From: Frankiaceae bacterium
Lineage (GTDB): Bacteria; Actinomycetota; Actinomycetes; Mycobacteriales; SCTD01
Assembly: GCA_016650445.1 (NCBI GenBank)
Contig: JAENVS010000042.1
Location: forward strand, 14,327-78,326
Reading direction: 5' to 3'
DNA: 64,000 nucleotides
The notes below the pieces were generated by a model. The model was not told the DNA's origin. It saw only the letters and a program-made list of their open reading frames with translations, and did not search any database. Within the stretch, counting starts at the first letter, position 1. The number at the start of each line of letters is the position of its first letter. Positions 9,645 through 54,302 of this stretch are shown here, in pieces. The position numbers and the translations under genes were made by a program.

Positions 9645-9725
9645 GCCCGGTTTCGGCAACCCGGCTGGGTACGTGACCCCCGTGGCTTTGCGCCCCCGCC
9701 TCGCGACGGGTTTGCGGTATCGACC
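9645..9725 (-). promoter_or_regulatory. Candidate c-di-GMP-I (GEMM-I) riboswitch aptamer in the leader of the 9155-9562 gene
   Basis: Minus-strand RNA reads ACCGCAAACC-CGUC-GCGA-GGCG-GGGGCGCAAAGCCACGGGGGUCACGUACCCAGCCGGGUUGCCGAAACC. This contains GCAAAnC plus a GNRA-capped hairpin, the CGCAAAGC junction, and a 3' AGCCGGGUUnCCGA block, in the canonical order. Confidence 0.55.
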
Positions 9726-9873
9726 GGTCCGTTGATGTGGACACAGAAGGTGTCGGCGGATTCGGACACCGGGCGCAGAGCCGAACGCAGCGGGCGTATG
9801 GCCAGGACTACCCACCTAGCGGCTGCTCGGAGGGGCTACTCGACACCTGGTCAGCCCGAGATGTCCCGACTTG

Positions 9874-13601: not shown

Positions 13602-14881
13602 CGGATCCTTGCCTGCACTGCCTCGACGTGCGCGGCAAGGTCCTCGGCACCGCCGAGCGCCGAGACGTGCGGTGCGACCGCGGCCAGCGCCGCGGCGGAG
13701 TACTCGATGAGGGACATCCGCTTGAGGAAGGACTGCGTGGACAGCCCGCTGCTGAACCGCGCCGTACCGCCCGTCGGAAGGACGTGGTTCGACCCCGCGA
13801 GGTAGTCGCCGAGGCTGACCGGCGTCGCGCTGCCGACGAACACGGCGCCGGCGTTGCGCACCCGCAGCGCCCGCTCGCGCGCGTCGGCAGTCATGACCTC
13901 GAGGTGCTCTGCCGCCCAGGCGTCGACCACTTCGAGGCCGTGGTCGAGGTCGTCGACCAGCACGTACGCCGACTGCCCGGCGAGCGCGGTCTCGACGCGC
14001 TCCCGGTGGCGCGTCGCGGCGACCTGCTTGTCGAGCTCGACGTCGACCCGGTCGAGCAGGTCGGTGCTCGGTGTCACGAGCAGGCAGGCCGCCAACTCAT
14101 CGTGCTCAGCCTGCGCCACCAGATCGGCAGCGACGAACGCCGGGTCCGCGGTGTCGTCCGCGAGGATGGCGATCTCCGTCGGTCCCGCTTCGGAGTCAAT
14201 CCCTACATGACCCTGAACGATCCGCTTGGCGGCAGCGACGTGCACTCGGCCGGGTCCAGTGACGATGTCCACCGGGGGGCAGCCCTCCACGCCGTACGCG
14301 AACATCGCGATCGCCTGCGCCCCGCCGACGGCGTACACCTCATCCACGCCGAGCAACGCGCACGCCGCGAGCACAACTGGGTGGGGCAGTCCGTTCTGCT
14401 TAGGCGGACTCGACACCGCCAAGCTCGTCACACCGGCAACCTGAGCGGGCACGACGTTCATGACCACACTGCTCGGATAGGCGATCAGCCAGCTGGGGAC
14501 GTAGAGCCCAACCCGCTGGACGGGAACCCACCTCTCGGTGACCGTGGCGCCGTCGACCACGTCGACGACCACGTCGGAGCGCAGCTGCGCGGTGCAGACC
14601 CGGCGTAGCCGGTCGGCCGCCTCCTCGAGCGCGGCGCGCACCGCCGGGTCGAGCTCGTCGAGCGCTGCGGTGAGCGCCGCCTGCGGCACCCGCAGCGCGT
14701 CCAGGCGCACGCCGTCGTACTTCTCCGTGGCGGCAAGGACAGCCGCGACGCCGCGGGCTCGCACGTCGTCGACGACGGGACGCACCTGCTCCACGGCCAC
14801 CGCGACGTCGAGGCGGGCGCGGGGAAGCAGGTCCCGCGGGTCGCTGTCCCTGCGACCGCGCAGGTCGATGCGGGTCAGCAC
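13598..14881 (-). CDS. hisD: Histidinol dehydrogenase
   Basis: 427 aa with HisD motifs (GPTE, AQAEHD, GDY.AG.NHVLPT). Confidence 0.93.
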
Positions 14882-27667: not shown

Positions 27668-28243
27668 TCATGCGTGATCGGGCGGCGTTCCCGGATCGGT
27701 CGGCGTTCGCGGCCCGGGCGCCTTGCGCGTCCCGTCGAGCTCGATGCCGCGCATCGAGAGCAGTACGGCGAGCAGGCCGCCGACGACGATGGCGCTGTCG
27801 GCGACGTTGAAGACCGGCCAGACCCGGAAGTCAATGAAGTCGACGACGGCGCCGCGACCCGGCCCGGGTGAGCGGAAGAGGCGGTCGGCCAGGTTGCCGG
27901 TCGCGCCGCCCAGGAGCAGCCCGAGGCTCGCGGCCCACGCGGGGCTGCCCAGGCGCCTCGCCGTGCGCACGATCACGACGATGACGGCGACCGCCACCGC
28001 GGTGAACAGGACCGTCGCCCCCTGGGCGAAGGAGAACGCCGCGCCGGTGTTGCGGCTCACGGCCAGCAGCAGCACGCCGCCGAGCAGCCGGATCGGCTCG
28101 CGGTGCTCCAGGTGCTCGACCACGAGGTACTTGGTCAGCAGGTCCAGCCCGAGGACGGCGACGGCGACCGCCGCCAGGAGTCCGGTGGTGCGCCGCGGGG
28201 CTGGCGTCAGCGGCGTTCTTCGCGCTGCTTGCACGCGACGCAC
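27668..28243 (-). CDS. lspA: Lipoprotein signal peptidase (signal peptidase II)
   Basis: 191 aa with four TM segments and the motifs GNLADR and FNVADSAI. Confidence 0.88.
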   Translation of the reverse strand: MRRVQAARRTPLTPAPRRTTGLLAAVAVAVLGLDLLTKYLVVEHLEHREPIRLLGGVLLLAVSRNTGAAFSFAQGATVLFTAVAVAVIVVIVRTARRLGSPAWAASLGLLLGGATGNLADRLFRSPGPGRGAVVDFIDFRVWPVFNVADSAIVVGGLLAVLLSMRGIELDGTRKAPGPRTPTDPGTPPDHA

Positions 28244-29877
28244 AGGGTCGCCCGCGGGAACGCCTGCAGCCGTGCCTTCGGGATCGGGTCGCCGCAGTTC
28301 TCGCAGCGGCCGTAGGTGCCCGCGTCGAGCCGCGTCAGGGCGCGCTCCACCTGCAGCAGCAGGTCGCGGCTGTTGTTGGCGAGCGACATCTCGTGCTCGC
28401 GCTCGAACGTCTTGGTGCCGGCGTCGGCCTCGTCGCCCGAGCCCTCGCTGCTGGCGTCGCGCTTGAGCGTCGCCTGCACCTCCTCGGCGTCGTCGATCTC
28501 GCCGCGCAGCTCCCTCGCCTGCTCCTCGAGCTCCTTGCGGATCGCGTTGAGCTCTGCCCGGGTCCAGGCCTGCTCGACCGGGATGGAGGGCCGGGTCTTC
28601 TTCTCCGGCGCCTTGGGCGGGGCGGCTTTCATCGGCTGTACGACGGACCGCGGCTTGGGGACGACCGGCTCGGGAGCCTTGGCGGGAGCCTTGGAAGCCT
28701 TGGGAGCCTTGGAGGCCTTCGCAACGGCCGCGGCGGGAGCCGCCTTCGCCGGCGGACCGACCGTGAACGTCGGCACCGACTCGTCCGGCGCGGGCGTCGG
28801 CGCCGGAGCGGGGGTGACCGTGGCGGGCCGGCTCGTTGCGCCCGGACTGGGCGCCGCCTTGACCGAGGCCGCCTGGGGGGCGGTGCTCCTGGCGGGTGCC
28901 TTGTTGACCTTGGCCCGGTTGGCGGGGCCCTTCGTCGCGCCCTTCGCCGGCGTGCCCTTGACGGCAGGCTTGGCGGCCACCTTTGCCGGGGCCTTCTTCG
29001 CGGGAACCTTCGCGGCTGCCTTCGTGACCACCTTCGTCGCGACCGGGGCCTGCTTTGCGGGGGCCTTCGCCGCCTTCTTCGCGACCGGAGCCTTCTTGGC
29101 GGGCGCCTTCTTCGCGACCGGGACCTTCTTCGCAGGGGACTTCTTCGCGACCGGAGCCTTCTTCGCAGGGGACTTCGCGGCCTTCTTCGCGACCGGGGCC
29201 TTCTTCGCCGGAGCCTTGGCGGGAGCCTTCGCGGCCGCCTTCTTCGCAACCGGAGGCTTCGCGACCGGGGCCTTCTTCGCCGGAGCCTTGGCGAGGGCCT
29301 TCGTGGCCGCCTTCTTCGCAACCGGAGGCTTCGCGACCGGGGCCTTCGCGGGCGCCTTCTTCGCGACCGGAGCCTTCGCGGGCGCCTTCTTCGCGACCGG
29401 AGCCTTCGCGGGCGCCTTCTTCGCGACCGGGGCCTTCGCGGGCGCCTTCTTCGCGACCGGGGCCTTCGCGAGCGCCTTCTTCGCGACCGGGGCCTTCGCG
29501 GGCGCCTTCTTCGCGACCGGGGCCTTCGCGGGCGCCTTCTTCGCGACCGGGGCCTTCGCGGGCGCCTTCGCGGGCGCCTTCTTCGCGACCGGTGCCTTCG
29601 CGGACGCGCTCGTGGCCGGGGCGGGGGTCTTCACAGGGGCTGCTTTCTGTCCGGGTGCGGCGCTCGGGCCGGGAGGCGCTGCCGCTGGCCGCGGCGTCAC
29701 CGAAGGCGGGACGGTGAGCGGGCGGGCGACGGGCAAAGCGGGCAAGGCGGGCAAGGCGGGGGGCGTTGCGGCGGCAGGACCGGGCGCCTTGTCCTTGCCG
29801 ATGTGGAGCTTCTGACGCAGCTTTGCGCCGAATCGGGCGCGGTCTGCGGCCATGACAGCCCCCTGGTCTCTAGGCAT
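28207..29877 (-). CDS. Histone-H1-like Lys/Ala/Pro repeat protein fused to a DksA/TraR C4 zinc finger (DdbA-like)
   Basis: 556 aa. About 400 aa of KKAPAKAPVA-type repeats, then a coiled region, then CENCGDPIPKARLQAFPRATLCVACKQ. The start could also be the ATG at 29853. Confidence 0.8.
   Translation of the reverse strand: MPRDQGAVMAADRARFGAKLRQKLHIGKDKAPGPAAATPPALPALPALPVARPLTVPPSVTPRPAAAPPGPSAAPGQKAAPVKTPAPATSASAKAPVAKKAPAKAPAKAPVAKKAPAKAPVAKKAPAKAPVAKKALAKAPVAKKAPAKAPVAKKAPAKAPVAKKAPAKAPVAKKAPAKAPVAKPPVAKKAATKALAKAPAKKAPVAKPPVAKKAAAKAPAKAPAKKAPVAKKAAKSPAKKAPVAKKSPAKKVPVAKKAPAKKAPVAKKAAKAPAKQAPVATKVVTKAAAKVPAKKAPAKVAAKPAVKGTPAKGATKGPANRAKVNKAPARSTAPQAASVKAAPSPGATSRPATVTPAPAPTPAPDESVPTFTVGPPAKAAPAAAVAKASKAPKASKAPAKAPEPVVPKPRSVVQPMKAAPPKAPEKKTRPSIPVEQAWTRAELNAIRKELEEQARELRGEIDDAEEVQATLKRDASSEGSGDEADAGTKTFEREHEMSLANNSRDLLLQVERALTRLDAGTYGRCENCGDPIPKARLQAFPRATLCVACKQREERR
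29341..29550. repeat. Seven near-identical 30-bp in-frame tandem units inside the DdbA-like gene
   Basis: The unit rgccttcgcgrgcgccttcttcgcgaccgg repeats head-to-tail with 0-2 substitutions and encodes KKAPAKAPVA. More degenerate copies flank it (about 29040-29600). Confidence 0.9.
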
Positions 29878-30296: not shown

Positions 30297-33422
<3,126 letters not shown>

Positions 33423-33555: not shown

Positions 33556-34059
33556 GTGACCGTCTACACCGTTGAGAGCCCCCAGCCGGTTCACAAGTCG
33601 TTCCGGCTGACGCGGCCCGGTGCCCACCTCGCCGTGCAGAGCCAGGTCCGGCCCGCGCTGGTGCTTCCCGAGCGCGAGGCGCGGCTGCTGCTGTCCGCCG
33701 CGGCGCGCGAGGACGTCTCGCGCGGCGGTGTGTTCTCCGCCGGCCCGGCCGGCATCCAGCTCTGGAGCGGGTCCTGGGACGGCCCGGGTGGCAGTCACGG
33801 CAGCGCCGCGCACCTGGGCTCGGTGGACTGGTCCTACGACACGCCCGCCCGGCACTACATCACCGTCTACCGGGTGCTGGTGACGGCCGCCGGTGCCGAG
33901 CTCGGCCTGACCACCGAGTCGGTCCTGGCCCAGGTCATGGCACTGGGCGGCCTGTCGTCCGTGGGCGCCACGCTGGCCATGGCCGTCCCGCCGCCGCGCG
34001 ACCCGTTCCGGTCCACGGAGCTGCGGGCCCGCGCGGGCATCGAGGCCGAGCGCATCTAG
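33556..34059 (+). CDS. Hypothetical protein
   Basis: 167 aa from the GTG at 33556, preceded by GGAGG (33546-33550). No recognisable motif. Confidence 0.45.
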   Translation: MTVYTVESPQPVHKSFRLTRPGAHLAVQSQVRPALVLPEREARLLLSAAAREDVSRGGVFSAGPAGIQLWSGSWDGPGGSHGSAAHLGSVDWSYDTPARHYITVYRVLVTAAGAELGLTTESVLAQVMALGGLSSVGATLAMAVPPPRDPFRSTELRARAGIEAERI

Positions 34060-34187
34060 AGCGCATCGAGACCCCCCACGTCAGCGGCCGCCGTCCCCAC
34101 CCGGGAGACGGCGGTCGCTGCGTTCTCAGCGGCGGCTGAGTACGGCTAACAAGCCGGATGCATGGGTCCCATGAAGGATGAGGAGGC

Positions 34188-34269
34188 GCGTGCGACGCGC
34201 ACACCGATCAGCGGGCGTACTCGGTGTGCGCAGCGCAGGCGTGCAACGTGAGCGTGCGACGCGCACACC
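34188..34269. repeat. Two perfect 18-bp direct repeats, each with an internal palindrome, flanking a complementary 9-mer
   Basis: gcgtgcgacgcgcacacc occurs at 34188-34205 and 34252-34269; each copy contains GTGCG-ACG-CGCAC. ggtgtgcgc at 34223-34231 is the exact complement of the gcgcacacc end of both copies. The region lies between convergent genes. Confidence 0.7.
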
Positions 34270-34354
34270 CTCCGGGAACCGGCGGCGAAGGGCGGCGATC
34301 ACCTCAGCGATGGGCTCCATCGCATCCGGCTTGTCTGCCGCATTCAGCGTCGGG

Positions 34355-35218
34355 TCAACGTCGGGTCACGGCCTTCTTGGCAGGTGCCTTCTTGGCCGGT
34401 GCCTTCGCCGCCGCCTTCTTGGCCGGTGACTTGGCCGCCGCCTTCTTGGCGGGGCCCTTCGTGGCGGGGGCCCTCGTGGCAGCGGTCCTGGCCGGTGCCT
34501 TGGTGGCCGGCGTCTTCGTCGCCGCGGTCTTGGGCGCGGCGGTCTTGGGCGCGGCGGTCTTGGCGGCCGCCTTCTTGGCCGGGGCCTTGGTGGCGGGTGC
34601 CTTCGCCGCAGCGGCCCTGGCCGGGGCCTTCGTGGCGGTGGCCCTGGCCGGGGCCTTCGTGGCGGTGGCCCTGCGTGCCGGCGCCTTCGCCGTCCCCCGG
34701 ACCGCCTCGGCCGGGTCGGCCGCGACCTGGGAGGTGGCGCTGGACGCCGGCTCCGACGCCACGGACGCGAGAGCCTCGTCGGGCTTGCAGACGCCGCAGG
34801 CGGTGTAACCGTCGGCGCGCGCGGTGCCGACCTGCACCGCCTCGGCGTCCTTGCCGGTCAGGTAGCGGCAGCCCGCGACGTGGTAGCGCGGCCGACCCGT
34901 GACGACGAGGACCGAGCCGCTCACCGACGCGTCGGACCTGCCGGCCTCGGCGGCCTGCGGTTCGGACCGCGACCGGGAGCCGGCCGGGATGATCGCGGTG
35001 ACGCCCTCCACGTCGCTCGACGTCGAGACGGCCGGAGCCGCGGTGGCCGCGTCGGGGATCTCCTCGCCGCGGCGCTGCATGATGCCGACGATGAGGAAGC
35101 CGAAGGACACCACGCTCACGGCGATCGAGGCGTAGACGAACCCGAGCGTGCTCGAGATGAGGCCGATGGCGAGCAGGACGATGGCGACGACGACGAGCGC
35201 GCCGCTGATGACGATCAC
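34355..35218 (-). CDS. Membrane-anchored protein with Ada-like zinc-ribbon motif and Lys/Ala-rich histone-like tail
   Basis: 287 aa. Two N-terminal TM segments, then the motif RYHVAGCRYL...GYTACGVCKP, then a C-terminal tail of about 110 aa of AKKAAAK/TKAPA repeats. Confidence 0.65.
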   Translation of the reverse strand: MIVISGALVVVAIVLLAIGLISSTLGFVYASIAVSVVSFGFLIVGIMQRRGEEIPDAATAAPAVSTSSDVEGVTAIIPAGSRSRSEPQAAEAGRSDASVSGSVLVVTGRPRYHVAGCRYLTGKDAEAVQVGTARADGYTACGVCKPDEALASVASEPASSATSQVAADPAEAVRGTAKAPARRATATKAPARATATKAPARAAAAKAPATKAPAKKAAAKTAAPKTAAPKTAATKTPATKAPARTAATRAPATKGPAKKAAAKSPAKKAAAKAPAKKAPAKKAVTRR

Positions 35219-35290
35219 GGGGTAAGTCCTCCGGTGGGTGAGAGCGCGGGAATCCTAGCGGCCCTCAACGTGGGGGTGGATGGGCGAGAG

Positions 35291-36295
35291 CTAACGCTCG
35301 GCCGGCGGCTCGGGGCCGTCGTCGAGCTCCTCGCTGAACGTCGTCGGGGGGACGATCGTGAACGGGCCGATCGGCTCAGGGCCGGTCGAGGACTGCAGCG
35401 GCGGTACAGCCCGTAGCGCGGGCGGCTCGGCCTCCCGCGGCGGCCCGGTCGGAGCAGGCCCCTGGGTCGACCCCGTGCCCGGTGCGATGGACGGCACAGC
35501 CGGGGCCGCAGTCGGCGGCGCGGGAGCCGGCGAGAACGCCGGGGCGGGCGGTGGCATCGGCGGCTCCGCAGGGCGGTACGACGGCGGCGCCGCGACCGGC
35601 GCCGGAGCGACAGTCGCGGGCGGCGCCGGGGCGGGTGGTGCAGACGGTGCGGCGGCTGGTGCGGACGGCGGTGCGGACGGCGCGGGGGACGGCGCGGCGA
35701 CCGGCCCGCCGGCCGGGCCGATCCCGACGGCGGCCGTGCGGGCAGCCGCCGGCACCCCTGCTCCGCCGTCGTCGGGAGCCCCCCGGGACGACAGGTCGCG
35801 CAGCTGCCCCTCGAGGTAGGCCTTGAGCCGGGTGCGGTACTCCCGCTCGAACGCCCGCAGGTTCTCGATCTGGACCTCGAGCTCGCGCTTGCGCTGGTCG
35901 AGACCGCCCATGGCGGCCGTGATGCGGGCGGCGATCTCGTTGTCGACGTTGCCGGCGCGGCCCTGCGCGTCCGAGACGATCTTCGCGGCGTCCGCGCGCG
36001 CCTCGGCCACGACCTCGTCGGCCGTGCGCTGCGCGAGCAGCAGGGTGCGCAGGGCGGCTTCCTGACCCTCGCCGGGTGCCAGCGGGGCGGTCGGCGGCGG
36101 TGCGACCTGCTGCGGCTCGGGCGCTTGGAAGACCGGCGGTACCGGACGCCCGGTCTTGAGCTCGGCGTTGTCACGCAGCAGCCGCCCGAGCTCGCCCTCG
36201 ACCTCGTCGAGGAAGGCGTCGACCTCGTCGAGCGAGTAGCCGCGGAAGGCGATCTTGAACTGCTTGTTCGCGACGTCTGCGGGGGTCAGTGGCAC
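35291..36295 (-). CDS. divIVA: DivIVA/Wag31 polar growth and division protein
   Basis: 334 aa. Starts MPLTPADVANKQFKIAFRGYSLDEVDAFLDEV and continues with coiled-coil regions and a Pro/Ala-rich insert. Confidence 0.9.
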   Translation of the reverse strand: MPLTPADVANKQFKIAFRGYSLDEVDAFLDEVEGELGRLLRDNAELKTGRPVPPVFQAPEPQQVAPPPTAPLAPGEGQEAALRTLLLAQRTADEVVAEARADAAKIVSDAQGRAGNVDNEIAARITAAMGGLDQRKRELEVQIENLRAFEREYRTRLKAYLEGQLRDLSSRGAPDDGGAGVPAAARTAAVGIGPAGGPVAAPSPAPSAPPSAPAAAPSAPPAPAPPATVAPAPVAAPPSYRPAEPPMPPPAPAFSPAPAPPTAAPAVPSIAPGTGSTQGPAPTGPPREAEPPALRAVPPLQSSTGPEPIGPFTIVPPTTFSEELDDGPEPPAER

Positions 36296-36350: not shown

Positions 36351-36638
36351 TCATCGCAGCTCCCCGACGACTCTCATGAGGATCTGGACCACGAAGAACA
36401 GCACGATGAACGACAGGTCGATGCTCACGCGTCCGACCCGAAGGGGCGGGATCACCCGACGCAGGGCCTTCAGCGGCGGGTCCGTCACGGTGTAGCAGAC
36501 CTCGAGCGCGACCGCCACGGGCCCGGCCGGCCGGTAGGAGCGGGCGAACATGAACACGTACTCCATGATCAGCCGGAACAGCAACAGGACCAGAAAGACG
36601 AGCAGCGCGTCGAACACGATCGTCGCGACGAGAGACAC
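36351..36638 (-). CDS. yggT: YggT/YlmG family membrane protein
   Basis: 95 aa with two TM segments. Sits in the conserved position between sepF and divIVA. Confidence 0.85.
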   Translation of the reverse strand: MSLVATIVFDALLVFLVLLLFRLIMEYVFMFARSYRPAGPVAVALEVCYTVTDPPLKALRRVIPPLRVGRVSIDLSFIVLFFVVQILMRVVGELR

Positions 36639-36704: not shown

Positions 36705-37277
36705 TTAGGACTGGTTGAAGAAACCGCCCTCGACGATCAGCGCCTTGTCCTCCGCCGTCACGTCGACGTGCTCGGGTGAGAGAAGGAACACCTTGTTGGT
36801 GACGCGCTCGATGCTCCCGCGCAGGCCGAAGATGAGGCCGGCGGCGAAGTCGACGAGCCGCTTGGCGTCGACGTCGTCCATCTCGGTGAGGTTCATGATC
36901 ACGGGGGTGCCCTCGCGGAAGTGCTCGCCGATGGTGCGCGCCTCGTTGTAGGTGCGCGGCGTCAGCGTCGTGATGCGGTACGGGTCGTCCGGGACGGCTG
37001 CGACGTGCGGCCGGTGGGCCGGGGCCCTCCCGAGGTCGGCCGCCGTGTCGAGCGCCATGGACCCCCGGGTCTGCGTCGTGTCGGCGAACGGCGGGCGGCC
37101 CGCGGAGCGCGGCGGCACGTCGGTGCGGTAGCTGCGCGTCGGGGCCGGCGCCTCGTGGTGGGGGGCTTCGTCATAGCCGTAGTGGTCGTCGTCCGGATAG
37201 CCGCCGTGGCGGCCGTCGTCGTCGTCGTCCTCGACGAGGCCGAGGTAGAGACCCAACTTGCGCATGGCGCCGGGCAT
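36705..37277 (-). CDS. sepF: Cell division protein SepF
   Basis: 190 aa. N-terminal membrane-targeting helix (MRKLGLYLGLVEDD) and C-terminal SepF core (PVIMNLTEMD..AKRLVDFAAG). Confidence 0.9.
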   Translation of the reverse strand: MPGAMRKLGLYLGLVEDDDDDGRHGGYPDDDHYGYDEAPHHEAPAPTRSYRTDVPPRSAGRPPFADTTQTRGSMALDTAADLGRAPAHRPHVAAVPDDPYRITTLTPRTYNEARTIGEHFREGTPVIMNLTEMDDVDAKRLVDFAAGLIFGLRGSIERVTNKVFLLSPEHVDVTAEDKALIVEGGFFNQS

Positions 37278-38801: not shown

Positions 38802-39959
38802 CTACTTCAGGAAGTCGGGTACGTCGAGGTCGTCCTCGAAGACGACCGTGCGCCGCGGCGGCGTCGGGGGCGCGGGACGCGGGCGATCGCCCTCGGCCGA
38901 GCTCGACGCGAACGCCGGCCGGGGGATGGACGTCGGTGAGTGCCCGGCGTCGGGAAGCGTGACCGAGTCGACGGCCGGGCGGCGGGTCTCCACCCGGCGG
39001 ACCGGCGTCGGCACACCTGCGTCGAACCCGGCGGCGATCACCGTCACCCGCACTTCGTCGCCGAGCGCGTCGTCGATGACCGCGCCGAAGATGATGTTGG
39101 CCTCGGGGTGCGCGGCGTCGGCGACGAGCTGGGCGGCCTCGTTGATCTCGAACAGGCCCAGGTCGGAGCCGCCGGAGATCGACAGCAGCACGCCGCGGGC
39201 GCCGTCCATGCTCGCCTCGAGCAGGGGGCTGGAGATGGCCATCTCGGCGGCCAGCACCGCCCGGTCCTCGCCGCGGGCGGACCCGATGCCCATCAGGGCG
39301 CTGCCGGCGTGGTTCATGACCGACTTCACGTCGGCGAAGTCGAGGTTGATCAGGCCGGGCGTCGTGATGAGGTCGGTGATGCCGGAGACGCCCGACAGCA
39401 GCACGTGGTCGGCGCTCTTGAAGGCGTCCATCACGCTGACCTGCCGGTCGCTGAGCGCGAGCAGTCGGTCGTTCGGGATGACGATGAGGGTGTCGACCTG
39501 GGCCCGCAGGGCCTCGATGCCCTCCTCCGCCTGCTCGGCGCGGCGCTTGCCCTCGAAGGAGAACGGGCGCGTCACGACGCCGATGGTCAGGGCACCGAGC
39601 GACCGGGCGATCTCCGCCACGATCGGCGCACCGCCGGTGCCGGTGCCGCCGCCTTCGCCGGCGGTGACGAAGACCATGTCGGCCCCCTTGAGGACCTCCT
39701 CGATCTCGTCCCGGTGGTCGTCCGACGCCTGCCGGCCGACCTCGGGGGCGGCGCCGGCGCCGAGGCCCCGGGTCAGCTCGCGGCCGATGTCGAGCTTGAC
39801 GTCAGCATCGCTCATCAGCAGCGCCTGGGCGTCGGTGTTGATGGCGATGAACTCGACGCCCTTGAGCCCGACCTCGATCATCCGGTTGACGGCGTTGACG
39901 CCGCCTCCGCCGATGCCGACCACCTTGATGACGGCCAGGTAGTTCTGCGGTGCTGCCAC
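38802..39959 (-). CDS. ftsZ: Cell division GTPase FtsZ
   Basis: Trimmed to the GTG at 39959 ([24 protein letters not shown]). Tubulin signature GGGTGTG and C-terminal peptide [10 protein letters not shown] are present. Confidence 0.95.
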
Positions 39960-40249
39960 GGTGTCGGAGACCTCTCGTGTGACGGGGGTGGGCGCGGGCG
40001 TGCGGGCGCGGGGGAAGGCACCGGGGGGCGGTTCGGACGGGGTCGGGCACCCGGGGCGGCGGTGGTGCGGAGAAGGCACCACCGGCGGTCCCGGTCGGGC
40101 GGTCGGAGGATTCGTTCGCGGGGAGGCTCCGGCACCCTCACTCTCAAGTAGACGCTTACAGTTATGTCAACCTGGGGAGTGAGGCCGGACGTTACGGGTC
40201 ACGCGCCCGCGCGGTCAACCGACCTGCTCGGCGTGTCGGGGTGACGCCG

Positions 40250-54109: not shown

Positions 54110-54213
54110 CTCGACCCTCTCGGTGGTGCCTCGTGCTGCCTCCCGGGCTCGCGGACCCGGGTTCGGTGTGCGTTGGTTCTTGGGCTGGCAGCTCCCTGTC
54201 GCCAGGTCCCCGC

Positions 54214-54259
54214 CCGCTCCCCGCCTGGCGCCGGGGAAGGTGCGCCAGGAAGGGAGCGG
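54214..54259 (-). promoter_or_regulatory. Long GC-rich hairpin in the mraZ-rsmH spacer (possible mraW-type leader or attenuator)
   Basis: Minus-strand RNA reads CCGCUCCC-UU-CCUGGCGC-[ACCUUCCCCG]-GCGCCAGG-C-GGGGAGCGG, giving 8+8 bp. Two further hairpins follow (CUGGC..GCCAG; CCCGGG..CCCGGG at 54143-54162). Confidence 0.4.
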
Positions 54260-54302
54260 TCGGAGGCCTCGAGACAGGGCACTGGCCCAGGAGCCGCAGC
54301 GG

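Follow-up and report, generated by a model that had tools for sequence, protein, structure and literature searches.

What lies between ileS and divIVA in the actinobacterium from which contig JAENVS010000042.1 was assembled (Frankiaceae bacterium, GCA_016650445.1), and what could it be doing there? The 64,000 nucleotides (nt) of this contig that we analysed (positions 14,327 to 78,326, hereafter the window, to whose own numbering all coordinates refer) include the distal end of an actinobacterial division and cell wall (dcw) cluster, with a GC content of about 73%. Two open reading frames (ORFs) occupy the gap: orf167, encoding 167 amino acids (aa) on the + strand at 33556-34059, and a 287-aa gene on the - strand at 34355-35218 (GTG start at 35218, stop codon at 34355-34357). 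The latter, our main subject, appears from its conserved gene order to be an accessory and so far uncharacterised gene in the tail of the dcw cluster, fixed directly downstream of divIVA in a Frankiales-like lineage. Its structural model has the product held in the cytoplasmic membrane by a conserved two-helix hairpin, from which a long disordered chain carrying an Ada-type module with H-C-C-C ligands would project into the cytoplasm. We assign a probability of roughly 40% to the proposal that this protein tethers DNA to the membrane, near the poles or septa.

The AlphaFold2 model of the 287-aa protein, built with a 121-sequence alignment, begins with a two-helix transmembrane hairpin at residues 1-50 (35069-35218, - strand, as are all the segments that follow), the helices spanning residues 2-21 and 25-50 at a predicted local distance difference test score (pLDDT) of 71-80. 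An acidic disordered linker follows at residues 51-100 (34919-35068; net charge -5, pLDDT 43-60) and leads into the Ada-type zinc module at residues 101-150 (34769-34918; net charge +1), whose presumed ligands are H113, C117, C141 and C144 and which the full model shows as a compact domain at residues 101-155 with a pLDDT of about 95. Disorder is predicted from residue 160 to 287, and the last part of the protein, residues 176-287 (34358-34693), is a polycationic Ala/Lys/Thr/Pro tail with a net charge of +31 and a pLDDT below 53. The hairpin terminates in QRR, and since two arginines follow helix 2, the positive-inside rule suggests that the part of the protein C-terminal to the hairpin is cytoplasmic.

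The composition of the tail is extreme. Its 112 residues comprise 48 Ala, 23 Lys, 16 Thr, 14 Pro and 8 Arg, with neither Asp nor Glu, and include five PAKKA, three AKKAAAK and four TKAPA repeats, while the DNA coding for it is an imperfect tandem repeat of 15, 27 and 42 nt. Lysine makes up 20.5% of the tail as against 0.6-2.7% of the ileS, FtsZ, DivIVA and orf167 products. Because lysine is kept at this level, every one of its tail codons being AAG, in a genome of about 73% GC, the lysine content appears to be selected against the mutational bias. The tail is thus Lys/Ala/Pro-rich, built of short repeats, disordered and strongly basic, as is an H1/HC2-like or HU-tail-like segment. The 287-aa protein gave no match to the Pfam HC2 family (PF07382) at E≤1; elsewhere, HC2 had a sub-threshold match in a neighbouring DdbA-like protein, described below, and homologue P0103 carries PF07382. 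Searches of Pfam and NCBIfam found no sequence-specific DNA-binding domain in the 287-aa protein. An earlier, sequence-only reading of the locus had described a transmembrane hairpin, an Ada-like metal site and a Lys-rich tail, an anatomy that the model, the composition and the alignments show to be accurate.

The zinc module has the motif RYH113-x3-C117 ... C141-x2-C144-KP, in which H113, C117 and C144 are invariant and C141 is at least 90% conserved among 121 homologues. Modelled alone, the 49-residue module reached a pLDDT of 95.7. When this model was searched with Foldseek against 350,542 PDB chains, the top two matches were both the N-terminal domain of Escherichia coli Ada (N-Ada), namely 1u8b, with a query TM-score (TMq) of 0.70 and a root-mean-square deviation (rmsd) of 2.3 Å, and 1wpk (TMq 0.59); the matches below them were noise. 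Among the predicted viral structures of BFVD, matches had a TMq of 0.80-0.87, an rmsd of 0.8-2.0 Å, 28-40% identity, a probability of 1.00 and a best E-value of 4.7e-4, and the top ones were annotated as 'Metal binding domain of Ada' or 'DNA methyl phosphotriester repair domain'. In hhalign, a profile built from 32 modules and Ada 1-96 (a sequence confirmed to be identical to 1wpk_A) aligned in register over Ada residues 31-75 (P=3.5e-4), pairing H113 with C38, C117 with C42, C141 with C69 and C144 with C72. Run against the sequences of the PDB, the module profile returned only chance LOV/PAS matches with E-values above 0.4.

Pfam matches agree with these comparisons, although at low scores. 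Ada_Zn_binding matched 28 of the 32 modules and DUF6233 matched 27 (best E-value 8e-5), all below threshold; the window module scored 13.3 bits against Ada_Zn_binding (PF02805; cutoff 23), and the 287-aa protein 16.5-17 bits against DUF6233 (PF19746; gathering cutoff 27.6). In contrast, an orthologue with seven modules, P0246, passes the whole-protein cutoffs, with 43.3 bits for Ada_Zn_binding (against 23) and 54 bits for DUF6233. Of the Pfam families, DUF6233 comes closest in sequence to the zinc module, yet the 287-aa protein stays under its cutoff, and the family being uncharacterised, the match explains nothing. Since the structure searches, the in-register profile alignment and the Pfam matches all agree, we conclude that the module has the fold of the Ada N-terminal domain; the Ada-like motif noticed in the sequence-only reading is therefore backed at the level of fold, by the profile alignment and by the sub-threshold Pfam matches. 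The module shares with the Ada N-domain (PF02805; 1u8b, 1wpk, 1adn) a small fold, ligands in register at spacings of x3, about 24-27 residues and x2, and the signature A..G[FY]..C..C.P. It differs in that its first ligand is a histidine, that it has no AraC-type helix-turn-helix (HTH) or MGMT partner, that it is attached to a membrane hairpin and that it is repeated from one to about ten times in relatives.

How widespread is this architecture? Residues 1-175 used as a query retrieved 184 homologous clusters at E≤1e-3, all of 215-307 aa and at most 74% identical. Scanning a single genome for each species yielded 70 loci, all in metagenome-assembled genomes (MAGs) that are mostly labelled Frankiales, Frankiaceae, Mycobacteriales or Actinomycetota. 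When the window proteins were placed on these loci by tblastn, a near-universal order emerged, sepF-yggT-divIVA-gene, facing orf167 and ileS and followed by a DksA-like gene and lspA. Indeed, divIVA was the immediate upstream neighbour in all 50 loci with flanking sequence (median gap 91 nt), the start codon was GTG in nearly all loci and most had GGAGGA about 9 nt upstream of it. An exhaustive HMMER search with the module profile reached 4889 representative proteins at E≤1e-3, some with up to 10 modules. One of them, P0246, has the hairpin and seven modules and is encoded between divIVA and ileS in assembly FQVU01, which belongs to the cultured Jatrophihabitans endophyticus (PMC6735867); another, P0241, with 10 matched stretches, is encoded between the same two genes in a second assembly. 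Both loci (L072 and L073) are without orf167, and the gene is likewise directly 3′ of divIVA and facing ileS.

From this distribution, the 287-aa gene and orf167 appear to be ancestral to the whole Frankiales-like clade, the zinc-module gene reaching further. A recent strain-specific insertion is ruled out by the synteny of about 70 loci, and the two genes cannot be regarded, as they had been, as a two-gene insertion between ileS and divIVA, given that both are clade-wide and keep the same order in about 70 related genomes and the gene itself its place in the two multi-module loci. The phyletic survey that the sequence-only reading had called for thus found the architecture and its linkage to divIVA conserved, neither strain-specific nor decaying. 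The exact sequence of the 287-aa protein was absent from the assembly index. A profile of the hairpin alone, searched for relatives that are cultured or characterised, such as a mycobacterial protein of the Rv2144c type (encoded downstream of wag31), recovered nothing but fragments of this family, and in the literature we did not find the family, its position next to divIVA or its series of one to ten modules described. The parts (transmembrane hairpin, Ada-type zinc fold and Lys-rich tail) are of known kinds, and their combination is new as far as our searches reach. One family member (L004, JAYVLQ010000144.1) is on a contig binned with the Kofleriaceae (Myxococcota), most likely a mis-binned actinobacterial contig. 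In the MAG CAVXHI01, two contigs (L051 and L053) each carry a full sepF-yggT-divIVA-gene-orf167-ileS block, which points either to a mixed-strain bin or to a duplicated dcw tail.

Within the family, the hairpin is the most conserved segment, with I2, V3, S5, L8, G19, L42 and R49 invariant in the 121-sequence alignment and about 20 further positions at least 90% conserved, including G6, A12, L15, V28, Y29, I32, S35, F41, G45, Q48 and R50. The core of the module is invariant at P110, R111, H113, C117, R118, A133, C144 and P146, and the first linker is acidic across close homologues (mean charge -4.6). Carrying both the hairpin MIVISGAL...QRR and an H-C-C-C module, of which at least one is required, the 287-aa protein belongs to this divIVA-linked family. 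The histone-like tail, however, is not a conserved feature of the family: 82 of the 121 close homologues have at their C-terminus instead a further zinc module (consensus VVVIPDRGKFH...CR.V...A..QGY.ACGVC.P), and only one module is found in the 287-aa protein and about 35 other close homologues. The stretch joining the modules of two-module proteins ranges in net charge from -7 to +18 (+2 to +13 in most), while the tails of one-module proteins have a net charge of +11 to +29, mostly +17 to +29. In a neighbour-joining (NJ) tree of the hairpin and first module, the highly charged one-module forms fall into at least two clades nested among two-module forms. We infer that in the sub-lineage of the window the second module was lost and replaced by the Lys-rich tail of 112 residues. 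No remnant of a second module (H...C...C..C) was found in a three-frame translation of 34060-34360, and a frameshifted or decayed copy in the 295-nt spacer between the two genes is ruled out, as there is neither a remnant nor a codon signal in it.

What might such a protein do? Under the proposal we favour, the conserved hairpin would anchor it in the cytoplasmic membrane, and the disordered chain would carry the zinc module and, in the sub-lineage of the window, a tail like those of H1, HU or DdbA. Since a distal Ada-type module seems to have been exchanged for a DdbA-like tail, the two may serve the same purpose, that is, the non-specific binding of a polyanion, DNA being the most likely candidate; the swap is indirect support for such binding. 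Bound nucleoid DNA would in this way be held near the membrane, and because the position of the gene is fixed beside divIVA, the site of action could be the poles or septa. The Lys-rich tails of HU and TopA bind DNA. The same type of tail in Streptomyces DdbA binds and condenses DNA (PMC3643593). The tail of the 287-aa protein resembles the tail of DdbA (SCO2075) and the C-termini of HupS/HupB and TopA in its PAKKA/AKKAAAK-type repeats, disorder and strong positive charge, but it is found on a membrane anchor and zinc module, not on a DksA, HU or topoisomerase core, it is sub-lineage-specific and it has no Pfam HC2 match. Joining DNA binding to membrane or DivIVA association near poles or septa is also the principle of Noc, of RacA-DivIVA and of ParB/ParA-DivIVA (Wag31). 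The likeness to Bacillus subtilis Noc and RacA-DivIVA and to actinobacterial ParB/ParA-DivIVA would be one of tether logic, by analogy only: here the anchor is an integral hairpin, with no ParB-like or HTH domain, no amphipathic helix and no detected sequence homology.

Several observations weigh against a DNA tether. The zinc module is nearly neutral (net +1), and its Foldseek match to N-Ada, with an E-value of 0.93 for a 49-residue query, is not significant alone. Linker charge ranges from -59 to +33 among 136 representatives of the wider zinc-domain search, and in arrays of 3-9 modules both the linkers and the module surfaces (motif QAVEDGF) are acidic, so that DNA binding cannot be the universal function of the family and the histone-like tail is a sub-lineage trait rather than a family-defining one. 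The independent loss of the second module in at least two clades is tentative, because the NJ tree from which it is read comprises 101 columns and has no support values. Furthermore, anionic lipids, RNA or polyphosphate would be just as possible targets for a polycationic tail near a membrane, and our literature searches found no binding, localisation or interaction data for any family member. The spread of linker charge, together with multi-module positional orthologues that are acidic throughout, would suit a DNA-independent membrane scaffold associated with DivIVA or the divisome, whose hairpin docks to a membrane protein, whose modules are protein-contact or zinc/redox units and whose disordered spacers drift in charge. 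For it speak the invariance of the hairpin and zinc module, a copy number that runs from one to about ten, as for a valency-tuned scaffold, and the strict synteny with divIVA. However, a scaffold of this kind leaves unexplained why, in at least two clades, a tail of +17 to +29 accompanies loss of the second module and why 20% lysine is kept in a high-GC genome, and it has no known partner; we hold it, as the main rival, to be possible but somewhat doubtful. If the tail instead organised the membrane surface by binding the anionic inner leaflet (cardiolipin, phosphatidylglycerol or phosphatidylinositol mannosides at the poles), RNA or polyphosphate, its net charge of +31 on a membrane-anchored chain, its predicted disorder and the fact that no sequence-specific DNA-binding domain was detected would all fit. 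Yet the closest precedents in composition, the DdbA, HU and TopA tails, bind DNA, and the replaced Ada-type module belongs to a DNA-backbone-binding fold, which leaves this role rather improbable. A broader proposal, which we find unlikely though not negligible, would see in the divIVA-linked family membrane-anchored arrays of Ada-type modules in the polar or septal machinery, coupling the nucleoid or a zinc/redox signal to DivIVA sites, the version in the window being a module-for-tail variant.

The fold and its alignment in register with N-Ada might also suggest a membrane-tethered, Ada-like sensor or repair protein for alkylation damage. In Ada the ligands are C38, C42, C69 and C72, Cys38 being the methyl acceptor and nucleophile (PMC10814553). 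The four-cysteine ligand set of Ada is not found here, as the first ligand position, that of the methyl acceptor, is an invariant histidine and only the other three are cysteines; Pfam and NCBIfam searches of the 287-aa protein detected neither an AraC-type HTH nor an MGMT domain; and the gene is in the dcw cluster and not in an ada/alk regulon. On account of this histidine and of the two missing domains, the 287-aa protein is not an Ada repair protein, and we judge a role in alkylation damage very improbable. A last possibility concerns the ORFs themselves, since high-GC genomes yield many long spurious ORFs, several of which overlap here, and in such an intergenic region the two could be annotation artefacts or genes in decay. 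GC content at third codon positions (GC3) is 0.941 in the 287-aa gene, 0.946 in orf167 and 0.943 in ileS, high values that at this locus are confined to the called frames, whereas neither the spacer at 34060-34354 nor the overlapping alternative ORFs have a codon-position signal. Both ORFs are therefore genuine genes, and with hundreds of homologues of conserved length, synteny that is kept and a confident domain model, an origin as artefacts or remnants is excluded.

As for expression, the spacer between divIVA and the 287-aa gene is poorly conserved except for a TANNNT element (TAGGAT, TAGGCT or TACGAT) and the ribosome-binding site. In the window these are a -10-like hexamer, TAGGAT (35252-35257, - strand), starting 39 nt upstream of the GTG, and a Shine-Dalgarno sequence, GGAGGA (35227-35232, - strand), 8 nt before the GTG and conserved across loci. 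TANNNT is the usual actinobacterial -10 consensus. Its T, A and T do not vary among the 16 sequences of an intergenic alignment, and in 47 of 53 loci the element is present no more than 70 nt before the start codon; in 35 of the 53 it starts at -48 to -30, where, with a background of 0.0004 per position, about 0.8% would be expected for this 19-nt span. A promoter of its own is thus probable for the gene. Transcription may also read through from divIVA, but given the conserved -10-like box and ribosome site, co-transcription is not required and an operon with divIVA is not needed. The start itself is backed by the conserved N-terminus MIVISGAL in the homologue alignments.

The second gene of the gap is of a different nature. 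We found 1012 homologues of orf167, of 162-169 aa and with a best identity of 90%, which share the N-terminus MTVYTVE, and for this reason we take the GTG at 33556 as its start. A 22-sequence alignment has 65 invariant columns, including GSVDWSYDTP.RHYIT.YR, and neither the sequence nor the profile matched anything in Pfam, NCBIfam or the PDB. The gene co-occurs with the one- and two-module forms of its convergent neighbour and is absent from both multi-module loci examined. Its product is a separate, conserved soluble hypothetical protein. Since none of 38 loci has a TANNNT in the 60 nt upstream of orf167, which follows ileS after a median of 132 nt, orf167 is probably co-transcribed with ileS. 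Most relatives (loci L008-L057, L018 and L031 among them) have in the ileS-orf167 spacer a conserved stem-loop, CTGCTCC-N4-5-GGAGCAG with GGTGACAC before it, at a distance of 25-45 nt from the orf167 start; in the window and its closest relatives, L001, L002 and L006, it is degenerate or missing.

The sequence-only reading had placed both genes between ileS and divIVA, where they are indeed present with a GC3 of 0.94-0.95, and had put the 287-aa gene directly downstream of divIVA on the same strand, which we confirm; orf167, however, follows ileS on the + strand and runs towards the 287-aa gene, 295 nt (34060-34354) separating their stop codons. In this spacer, a GC-rich hairpin at 34082-34120 (17-nt arms, 5-nt loop), 23 nt after the orf167 stop codon, may be the ileS-orf167 terminator, though it lacks a T-run. 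It is followed by a 214-nt element (34135-34348) bounded by a 27-nt inverted repeat (34135-34161 and 34322-34348, 85% complementary) and enclosing an exact 18-nt direct repeat, GCGTGCGACGCGCACACC, at 34188 and 34252, as well as an inverted copy. The RNA fold z-score of the spacer element is -6.0. Compared with the nearest relatives, where only 63-85 nt separate the gene from orf167, the spacer is longer by about 220 nt. Rfam searches of the spacers gave only sub-threshold miRNA noise, and a scan for consensus promoters and terminators was empty. We rejected the inverted-repeat element as a miniature inverted-repeat transposable element, no second copy being found in the window or in 73 loci. 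The sole metagenome match to the inverted-repeat pattern, at L074 2650-3020, is a long perfect palindrome unrelated to the window and looks like a fold-back assembly artefact.

The genes around the pair are those expected of the dcw tail. On the - strand, ftsZ (38802-40082) is followed by a yfiH-like and then a YggS-like gene, by sepF (36705-37277), by yggT (36351-36638) and by divIVA (35291-36295; Pfam DivIVA 4.2e-19, NCBIfam DivIVA domain 1.8e-13), directly upstream of the 287-aa gene. On the + strand, ileS (30297-33422) matches TIGR00392 with 882 bits against a cutoff of 621. The longest ileS ORF begins at GTG 30135 and would encode 1095 aa; as homologues have 1048-1051 aa and the ileS model match begins near 30297, the true start is probably ATG 30297 rather than GTG 30135. 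On the far side of ileS, 4.5 kb away from the 287-aa gene, a DdbA-like protein of 556 aa (28207-29877, - strand) has a DksA/TraR zinc finger (2e-14) at its C-terminus and, before it, about 300 aa of AKKAP-type repeats, far more than the 93 aa of the H1-like extension described for Streptomyces coelicolor DdbA. Two proteins with polycationic tails are thus encoded within 5 kb, one on each side of ileS. Elsewhere in the window, a c-di-GMP-I riboswitch (9652-9726, - strand, 54 bits) and an mraW RNA leader (54184-54285, - strand, 65 bits) scored above the Rfam gathering score.

In actinobacteria, polar growth and the anchoring of the chromosome are organised by DivIVA/Wag31, of which, to our knowledge, few integral-membrane partners are known. 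A gene that is fixed beside divIVA lineage-wide, and whose product combines a conserved hairpin with modules of a DNA-backbone-binding fold, would be a concrete candidate for such a partner. The family would also be a case of an Ada-type zinc fold outside DNA repair, in which a histidine replaces the reactive cysteine. Its natural series, from one and two to 3-10 modules and from acidic to histone-like linkers, offers ready variants with which the roles of module and tail may be separated. The family is mostly confined to uncultured lineages; Jatrophihabitans endophyticus is a carrier in culture, in which the question can be approached by experiment.

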